From Escherichia coli (GTDB lineage: Bacteria > Pseudomonadota > Gammaproteobacteria > Enterobacterales > Enterobacteriaceae): a DNA stretch of 64,000 nt. The number at the start of each line of letters is the position of its first letter. The first letter of the stretch is position 1. A program made the position numbers and the translations under genes. Below the pieces are notes generated by a model, which was given only the letters and a program-made list of their open reading frames with translations, made no database searches and had not been told where the DNA came from. Positions 9,051 through 9,456 of the stretch are shown piece after piece. The stretch is taken from NCBI RefSeq assembly GCF_048403405.1, contig NZ_CP183129.1. The stretch is one strand, 5' to 3'.

Positions 9051-9456
9051 AAATCATACTGCCTGTGGATGTGGTGTTGTAACGTTAAATTTTTGTGCCA
9101 ATCCCTGGGGATGATACAGCGGTATATTTAAACAATTTTAGCGGGAAATACTCCCAACCAGGCGCGGCGAAGAATAGTTTTTCGATTTACCGCGTGAATG
9201 CAGTCAGTATGACAGCACCTGAAGCGCAATTTAAACGCTTATAACGTTTTAAAGCAAGAAGGGATCTAAAAACCAGAGGTATATAGCGATAAGAAATCAC
9301 CAACCAGTATAAAACACTATTTCCGTGAAAAAGACATGGCTAATCATGCGAACAAAAAATCACCAACCGTTGTAAAATCTAACGCCCGTATTTTGACTGC
9401 AAAGAAAATAAGCCAGCATCGGCTGGCTTATGGCAATAAAAGATGACAAAGGCGGA

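Follow-up and report, generated by a model that had tools for sequence, protein, structure and literature searches.

Direct repeats in the phoR–brnQ spacer

Two identical 12-bp sequences precede brnQ, which encodes the branched-chain amino acid carrier LIV-II, and the question raised by this locus is whether they are paired binding sites of a regulator, parts of an RNA element, or neither. The surrounding 64-kb stretch of E. coli DNA (64,000 nucleotides) is referred to here as the window. A first-pass annotation of its sequence had reported two exact copies about 63 bp apart, and both were present: on the plus strand, AAATCACCAACC occupies 9294–9305 and 9357–9368, with a start-to-start distance of 63 bp. 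The 406 bp given there for the brnQ upstream region agreed with the gene coordinates, since brnQ (7731–9050) and phoR (9457–10752), both on the minus strand, leave an intergenic spacer of 406 bp. The bases on the 3' side had been misreported as g/c-t-(t/a)-t; they are AGTA and GTTG, and the true common flank is ..T.TAAAA. Ungapped extension of the repeat yielded 24-nt modules that shared 20 of 24 bases. On the brnQ sense strand, which is the minus strand, the upstream module A (9354–9377) reads TTTTACAACGGTTGGTGATTTTTT and contains the core of copy A (GGTTGGTGATTT, 9357–9368), and module B (9291–9314) reads TTTTATACTGGTTGGTGATTTCTT and contains the core of copy B (9294–9305). The window held one further near match to AAATCACCAACC, at 19166 with one mismatch.

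Within the spacer, the repeat is improbable. In dinucleotide-preserving shuffles, an exact repeat of at least 12 nt within the 406 bp had P = 0.0085, and a 20/24 module pair had P = 0.001. The whole window contains 14 overlapping exact 12-mer pairs with a separation of at most 400 bp, about 10 of which are independent and most of which lie in coding DNA, as compared with about 2 expected under a block-shuffle null. With some 10 independent pairs at hand, the exact pair upstream of brnQ is therefore unexceptional when the whole 64 kb is searched. The brnQ coding sequence itself contains another exact 12-mer direct repeat (TCAGCGGCGCAA, 8588–8599 and 8708–8719, 120 bp apart), so such pairs are not rare in the window. 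For the locally improbable repeat, a selective or mechanistic cause within the E. coli lineage is nevertheless conceivable. The reading that we prefer, with a probability of roughly 0.6, is that the two copies are a lineage-specific coincidence in promoter-upstream DNA, and neither a regulator recognition motif nor an RNA element.

Position of the repeat relative to the brnQ transcript

The start-site map of Kim et al. (2012) contains a single brnQ start at 418645 (NC_000913.2), supported by 54 reads and giving a 5' UTR of 170 nt (PMC3415461); the sequence from −50 to +1 is TTTAGATCCCTCCTTGCTTTAAAACGTTATAAGCGTTTAAATTGCGCTTCA (PMC3415461, supplementary file 2). This start corresponds to an A at window position 9220 on the minus strand. 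The core promoter and start (9220–9257, minus strand) include a putative −35 hexamer TTGCTT at 9257–9252 and a putative −10 hexamer TAAATT at 9233–9228, and the core promoter block is nearly invariant across species. With the start site at 9220, copy A spans −148 to −137 and copy B −85 to −74, so neither is part of the leader RNA. On the other side, the intrinsic terminator hairpin of phoR (9408–9431, minus strand), with a 10-bp stem followed by the T tract TTTTCTTTG, is kept across species and is the upstream limit of the brnQ control region. Both copies are thus located between the phoR terminator and the brnQ promoter, and outside the leader RNA as defined by this single start-site data set. 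The leader/promoter location proposed in the first-pass annotation was correct as to the promoter-upstream DNA, but not as to the leader, because both copies precede the mapped start.

The TATACT and TACAAC sequences in the modules were considered as elements of a secondary promoter and rejected. A promoter scan of 8950–9550 returned no sigma-70-like site, and only one start has been mapped.

The core promoter is included in an almost invariant stretch at 9225–9277 (minus strand), TCTGGTTTT.cGATCCC..cTTGC.TTaAAACGTTATAAGCGTTTAAATTGC. An imperfect palindrome, TTTAAAACG-TTATAA-GCGTTTAAA, overlaps the spacer between the −35 and −10 elements of brnQ and could be a candidate repressor operator.

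A role at the RNA level would cast the copies as a brnQ leader or attenuator, as a G/U-rich anti-RBS element in phoR read-through RNA, or as the end of a small upstream ORF. The composition fits such a role, being G/U-rich in the sense 12-mer and C/A-rich around the brnQ ribosome-binding site, and a 16-codon ORF begins in an invariant block of the spacer and ends in copy B. However, transcription from the only mapped start begins downstream of both copies, and a good phoR terminator precedes them. An Rfam scan of 8900–9600 gave no meaningful match, only a chance tmRNA fragment (E = 0.97). The predicted duplexes between the modules and the 5' UTR (−13.7 and −15.0 kcal/mol) were no better than those of shuffled 24-mers (−11.9 ± 2.1 kcal/mol). 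The leader structure that had been suggested for the repeat is not supported, given the position of the copies between −148 and −74, the lack of an Rfam family and duplex energies within the shuffled range.

The 16-codon ORF (MISHVFFTEIVFYTGW, 9347–9297, minus strand), whose TGA stop lies inside copy B, was rejected as a small upstream ORF or leader peptide. Its frame has a start codon in 56 of 77 species and none in the other 21, and its length varies from 7 to 38 codons, so that neither start nor length is conserved. The mapped transcript starts downstream of this ORF, which is therefore probably not a gene. The RNA-level reading of the copies is largely refuted, and we leave it almost no probability.

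Conservation of the two copies

Within E. coli, we compared the locus across 5426 complete genomes using BLAST identity bands. The 431-bp phoR–brnQ spacer segment was present in 5424 of the 5426, and it was 100% identical to that of strain 7/2. The 61-mer around copy A was the same as in the window in 3425 of the 5426 genomes, and that around copy B in 3833; most E. coli genomes thus carry the exact pair. K-12 MG1655 carries GATTGGTGATTT as copy A, which lowers the identity of its pair to 11/12, and this K-12-type sequence was found in 344 of the 5426 genomes. Copy B was altered to GTTTGGTGATTT in a single strain, RIVM_C036569.

Outside E. coli, brnQ loci were taken from 80 species, of which 77 Enterobacteriaceae could be aligned. 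Neither copy was the same as in the window in E. albertii and three further Escherichia species, and the two varied independently of each other, with an identity of 8–10/12 between the 12-mers and 17/24 between the modules. The Citrobacter modules were 10–14/24 identical. Over the 77 species, the mean copy-to-copy identity was 4.9/12 for the core and 9.0/24 for the module; at other offsets the 24-mer background was 7.5 ± 1.2, and the offset of 63 was not the top-scoring one. Conservation of both copies in orthologous upstream regions, a check named in the first-pass annotation, did not emerge: the pair goes from 12/12 in E. coli and 11/12 in K-12 to the 4.9/12 mean of the 77 species.

The two positions behaved differently in the alignment columns. 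The consensus at copy A was G.cTG.Tg.TTT, with 8 of 12 columns conserved, which shows that copy A overlaps something functional. The copy B consensus, gg.t.....ttt, was essentially unconserved. Given the low identity across species and the polymorphism within E. coli, the alignments indicate that the exact repeat is a derived, E. coli-specific and still polymorphic feature rather than a conserved motif.

Lrp binding and the 12-mers

The spacer is a known target of Lrp in vitro. The genomic SELEX of Shimada et al. (2015) places one Lrp peak, at 418534, in the phoR>>brnQ spacer (PMC5320599, Table S1). The array behind it used 60-bp probes every 105 bp, so its resolution of about 100 bp localizes the binding to the region only, and not to the 12-mers (PMC5320599). 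The peak is 111 bp upstream of the start site, at about window position 9331, midway between the two copies. In the main texts of two Lrp ChIP-seq papers brnQ was unmentioned, and neither footprints nor in vivo ChIP or expression results for brnQ turned up in the texts consulted. A paper on the PhoB regulon made no mention of brnQ.

The 15-bp Lrp consensus reportedly obtained through SELEX by Cui et al. in 1995 is YAGHAWATTWTDCTR. Using this consensus, we scored each aligned position for mismatches, which gave a background of 8.45 ± 1.27. The 15-mers that include at least 10 nt of either 12-mer had 7–11 mismatches, a background level. The 15-mers adjoining the 12-mers did match, with two mismatches at 9305–9319 and four at 9370–9384.

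Another 19 regulator consensuses were compared with the 12-mer (CRP, FNR, TyrR, PurR, ArgR, IHF, PhoB, NtrC, DnaA, LexA, Fur, MetR, TrpR, Cra, FadR, PdhR, MetJ, NagC, and ArcA). Nothing convincing was found in this panel; the best match was an ArgR-like half-site with four mismatches, which was not significant after multiple testing. Motif comparison, as called for in the first-pass annotation, thus left the 12-mer at background level for Lrp and with no convincing partner among about 20 consensuses. A shared motif of the branched-chain amino acid regulon was also considered and rejected, as the one neighbour in the regulon that was compared, 13 kb of K-12 spanning livJ, livK, and livHMGF, contained no match to AAATCACCAACC at two or fewer mismatches.

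A phased array of Lrp-like sites

The scan revealed four Lrp-consensus-like sites in the spacer. Site 1 (9370–9384, −164 to −150; sense CGTTAGATTTTACAA) has four mismatches to YAGHAWATTWTDCTR in this strain and a mean of 5.9 across species (z = −2.0), the weakest of the four. Site 2 (9337–9351, −131 to −117; sense TCGCATGATTAGCCA) also has four, with a mean of 4.6 (z = −3.0). Site 3 (9305–9319, −99 to −85; sense TAGTGTTTTATACTG) overlaps the AT-rich end of module B and has two mismatches. Its mean across species is 3.8 (z = −3.7), with three or fewer mismatches in 35% and four or fewer in 74% of the 77 orthologous regions, and it reaches a single mismatch in Enterobacter sichuanensis. Site 4 (9274–9288, −68 to −54; sense CGCTATATACCTCTG) has five mismatches in this strain, and a mean of 3.0 across species (z = −4.3); three or fewer mismatches were found in 73% of the orthologous regions, as compared with 0.6% of background positions.

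The sites start at 9274, 9305, 9337, and 9370, which corresponds to spacings of 31, 32, and 33 bp. The positions with the lowest mean mismatch were −68, −99, and −131, and the probability that three random positions are phased in this way is about 0.001. In this strain, the mismatches add up to 15 (5 + 2 + 4 + 4), the joint best four-site score in the 64 kb (P = 0.002 in spacer shuffles), for a consensus whose degeneracy shows in 100 window matches at three or fewer mismatches against 80 expected. Weaker continuations of the array were seen at 9401 and 9434. From −165 to the start site, no insertions or deletions occurred in about 75 species.

It is these flanking consensus-like sites, and not the 12-mers, that show the phasing of about 30–33 bp. 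The 12-mers are located in the linkers: sites 1 and 2 flank copy A, and sites 3 and 4 flank copy B. At its AT-rich end, each 24-nt module runs into a neighboring site, module A into site 1 and module B into site 3. The earlier suggestion of paired sites for Lrp or a similar regulator therefore holds for the region, with its SELEX peak and phased array, and fails for the 12-mer itself, with its 7–11 mismatches and an unconserved copy B.

A segment of the spacer at 9335–9359 (minus strand, −139 to −115), which reads TTTTTTGTTCGCATGATTAGCCATG and has the consensus TTTTTTGTTCGCATGATtAgCCAtg, is nearly invariant in about 75 Enterobacteriaceae species and contains site 2. Lrp sites are typically much less conserved than this block, and a factor other than Lrp may therefore bind there. 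Conservation was also concentrated in the phoR terminator, in TCTGGTTTT.cGATCCC, in the core promoter and its palindrome, in several blocks of the 5' UTR, and in the C/A-rich stretch adjacent to the RBS.

The modules as an operator pair

The repeated modules could instead be an operator pair, recognized by Lrp as non-consensus DNA or by another factor, on the same helix face and six turns apart, which would allow cooperativity or looping. The geometry agrees with this explanation: 63 bp is an integral number of helical turns, the copies, at −74 to −148, lie where upstream sites of activators or repressors are typically found, and the Lrp SELEX peak is centered between the copies. The local improbability of the repeat (P = 0.0085 for the core, 0.001 for the modules) and the partly conserved columns of copy A also speak for it. 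Lrp sites of pap carry a Gnn(n)TTT motif, and both cores contain the similar G-N3-TTT (GTGATTT). Against these points, copy B shows hardly any column conservation, and even within Escherichia one copy varies independently of the other. The 12-mer is at background level for the Lrp consensus, finds no convincing match in the panel of regulator consensuses, and is missing from livJ/livK. Furthermore, K-12, the strain used for SELEX, carries an imperfect pair. We consider an operator pair unlikely.

Proposed explanation for the repeat

Under the preferred reading of a coincidence, the phoR–brnQ spacer is an Lrp-bound control region upstream of a sigma-70-type brnQ promoter. Lrp would occupy these particular phased 15-mers, probably as an octamer-type wrapped complex. 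The linkers would be constrained in length and not in sequence, so that their sequence would probably matter only through the length. In the line leading to E. coli, drift may then have made two T/G-rich linkers identical; they differ in other Escherichia species and in other genera. The distance between the copies follows from the array, whose period of about 31.5 bp necessarily places two equivalent linkers 63 bp apart. A striking exact repeat can thus arise from a periodic architecture without being a binding motif. Binding of Lrp to the spacer in vitro has already been published, and the repeat is an ordinary by-product in a known Lrp-bound region. At most, the published low-resolution Lrp SELEX peak is refined to a testable four-site model, with a spacing strictly conserved across Enterobacteriaceae.

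A variant of this model is that the identical T/G-rich linkers are non-neutral in E. coli, making non-consensus Lrp contacts in the wrapped octamer or contacts with another factor, and thereby setting the geometry or cooperativity of the complex. We regard this as quite improbable. If true, it would mean a species-specific nucleoprotein complex that tunes brnQ expression in a manner unlike that of other enterobacteria.

Multi-site, phased Lrp regions are known in E. coli upstream of ilvIH, pap, and gltBDF. The brnQ spacer resembles them in having several degenerate AT-rich 15-mers about three helical turns apart, upstream of the sigma-70 promoter of an amino-acid-related gene. It is also Lrp-bound in genomic SELEX, and the position of its array is kept across Enterobacteriaceae. 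It differs in its 12-mer repeat, which is located in the linkers and is unlike the consensus, and in the unusual invariance of the site 2 block. With the REP/BIME, ERIC, and boxC elements, the repeat shares only its short length and intergenic location. It has just two local copies, is non-palindromic and, beyond the pair, gave one single-mismatch hit in 64 kb and no hit around the liv genes, and it does not belong to these families.

Origin of the repeat and a natural deletion

The modules could also be the remnant of an old 63-bp tandem duplication, through which a second pair of Lrp sites was derived from the first. The regular period of the array, with a repeat offset equal to two periods, fits such an event, and so does the 17/24 module identity kept in all Escherichia species. 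Beyond the 24-mer, however, the two successive 63-nt units beginning with copy A and copy B match at only 10 of 39 positions, a background level, and the best Lrp registers are 65 bp apart, not 63. Both units, with the same spacing, are present in every genus examined, so any duplication would be older than the family, and neutral similarity would no longer be expected. Similarity peaks in E. coli and drops with phylogenetic distance, a trend that runs counter to an ancient remnant, and the data point to a gain in module similarity on the way from the Escherichia ancestor to E. coli. We consider a duplication origin very improbable.

Deletion between short direct repeats, through slipped-strand events or RecA-independent illegitimate recombination, is classically represented by the lacI deletion hotspots. 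The brnQ repeat has undergone an event of this kind. In E. coli A39 (NZ_CP028737.1), a clean 63-bp deletion runs from one copy to the other (window 9305–9367), so that exactly one repeat unit was lost. A single hybrid copy is left, with the flank of copy A upstream and that of copy B downstream. The invariant block is gone, as are Lrp-like sites 2 and 3, and brnQ and phoR are intact. It differs from the lacI case in its rarity, as it was found in only 1 of 5426 genomes. Serving as a deletion substrate in A39 is the sole consequence of the repeat seen in our data. The strain offers a ready natural variant for asking whether two of the four sites are dispensable.

Other observations at the locus and in the window

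The 170-nt 5' UTR of brnQ (9051–9220, minus strand) contains strongly conserved blocks, such as GGTAAATCGAAAAACTATTCTTCGCC. It also has hairpin-like segments, such as GGGAGTATTTCCC at 9155–9143 and ATCCCCAGGGAT, with no Rfam match, and may thus form a structured leader. The C/A-rich ACAACACCACATCCACA (9064–9080, minus strand), which immediately precedes the brnQ RBS, is invariant in all species aligned and is presumably the GcvB R1 target site; for Salmonella, brnQ is listed among the verified GcvB targets, and as conserved in E. coli (PMC9299463). A sigma-54-like element, TGGCAC-N5-TTTAA, is located at 9085–9100 (minus strand), about 45 nt upstream of the brnQ ATG, and is unconserved outside Escherichia. 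A genomic SELEX peak of RpoN holoenzyme with NtrC at 418832 adjoins the brnQ start codon (PMC8743547).

Elsewhere in the window, a further phased Lrp-like array with a score of 15 occurs at about 44445 (44415–44540). The sequence CAGCATATTATTCAG at 53574–53588 has one mismatch to the Lrp consensus, and an array starting at 53478 scores 17.

A cluster of direct repeats, TTTCGCAATTTTTT(C), was found at 3221–3285 with spacings of 36 and 12 bp, inside an ORF at 2666–4123 (minus strand). Read on the coding strand, the repeats encode a lysine/glutamate/alanine-rich repeat in the 485-residue product. Judged by position and size, the flanking genes are presumably malZ and acpH, and to our knowledge K-12 has no gene between these two. 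The ORF looks like an accessory gene.
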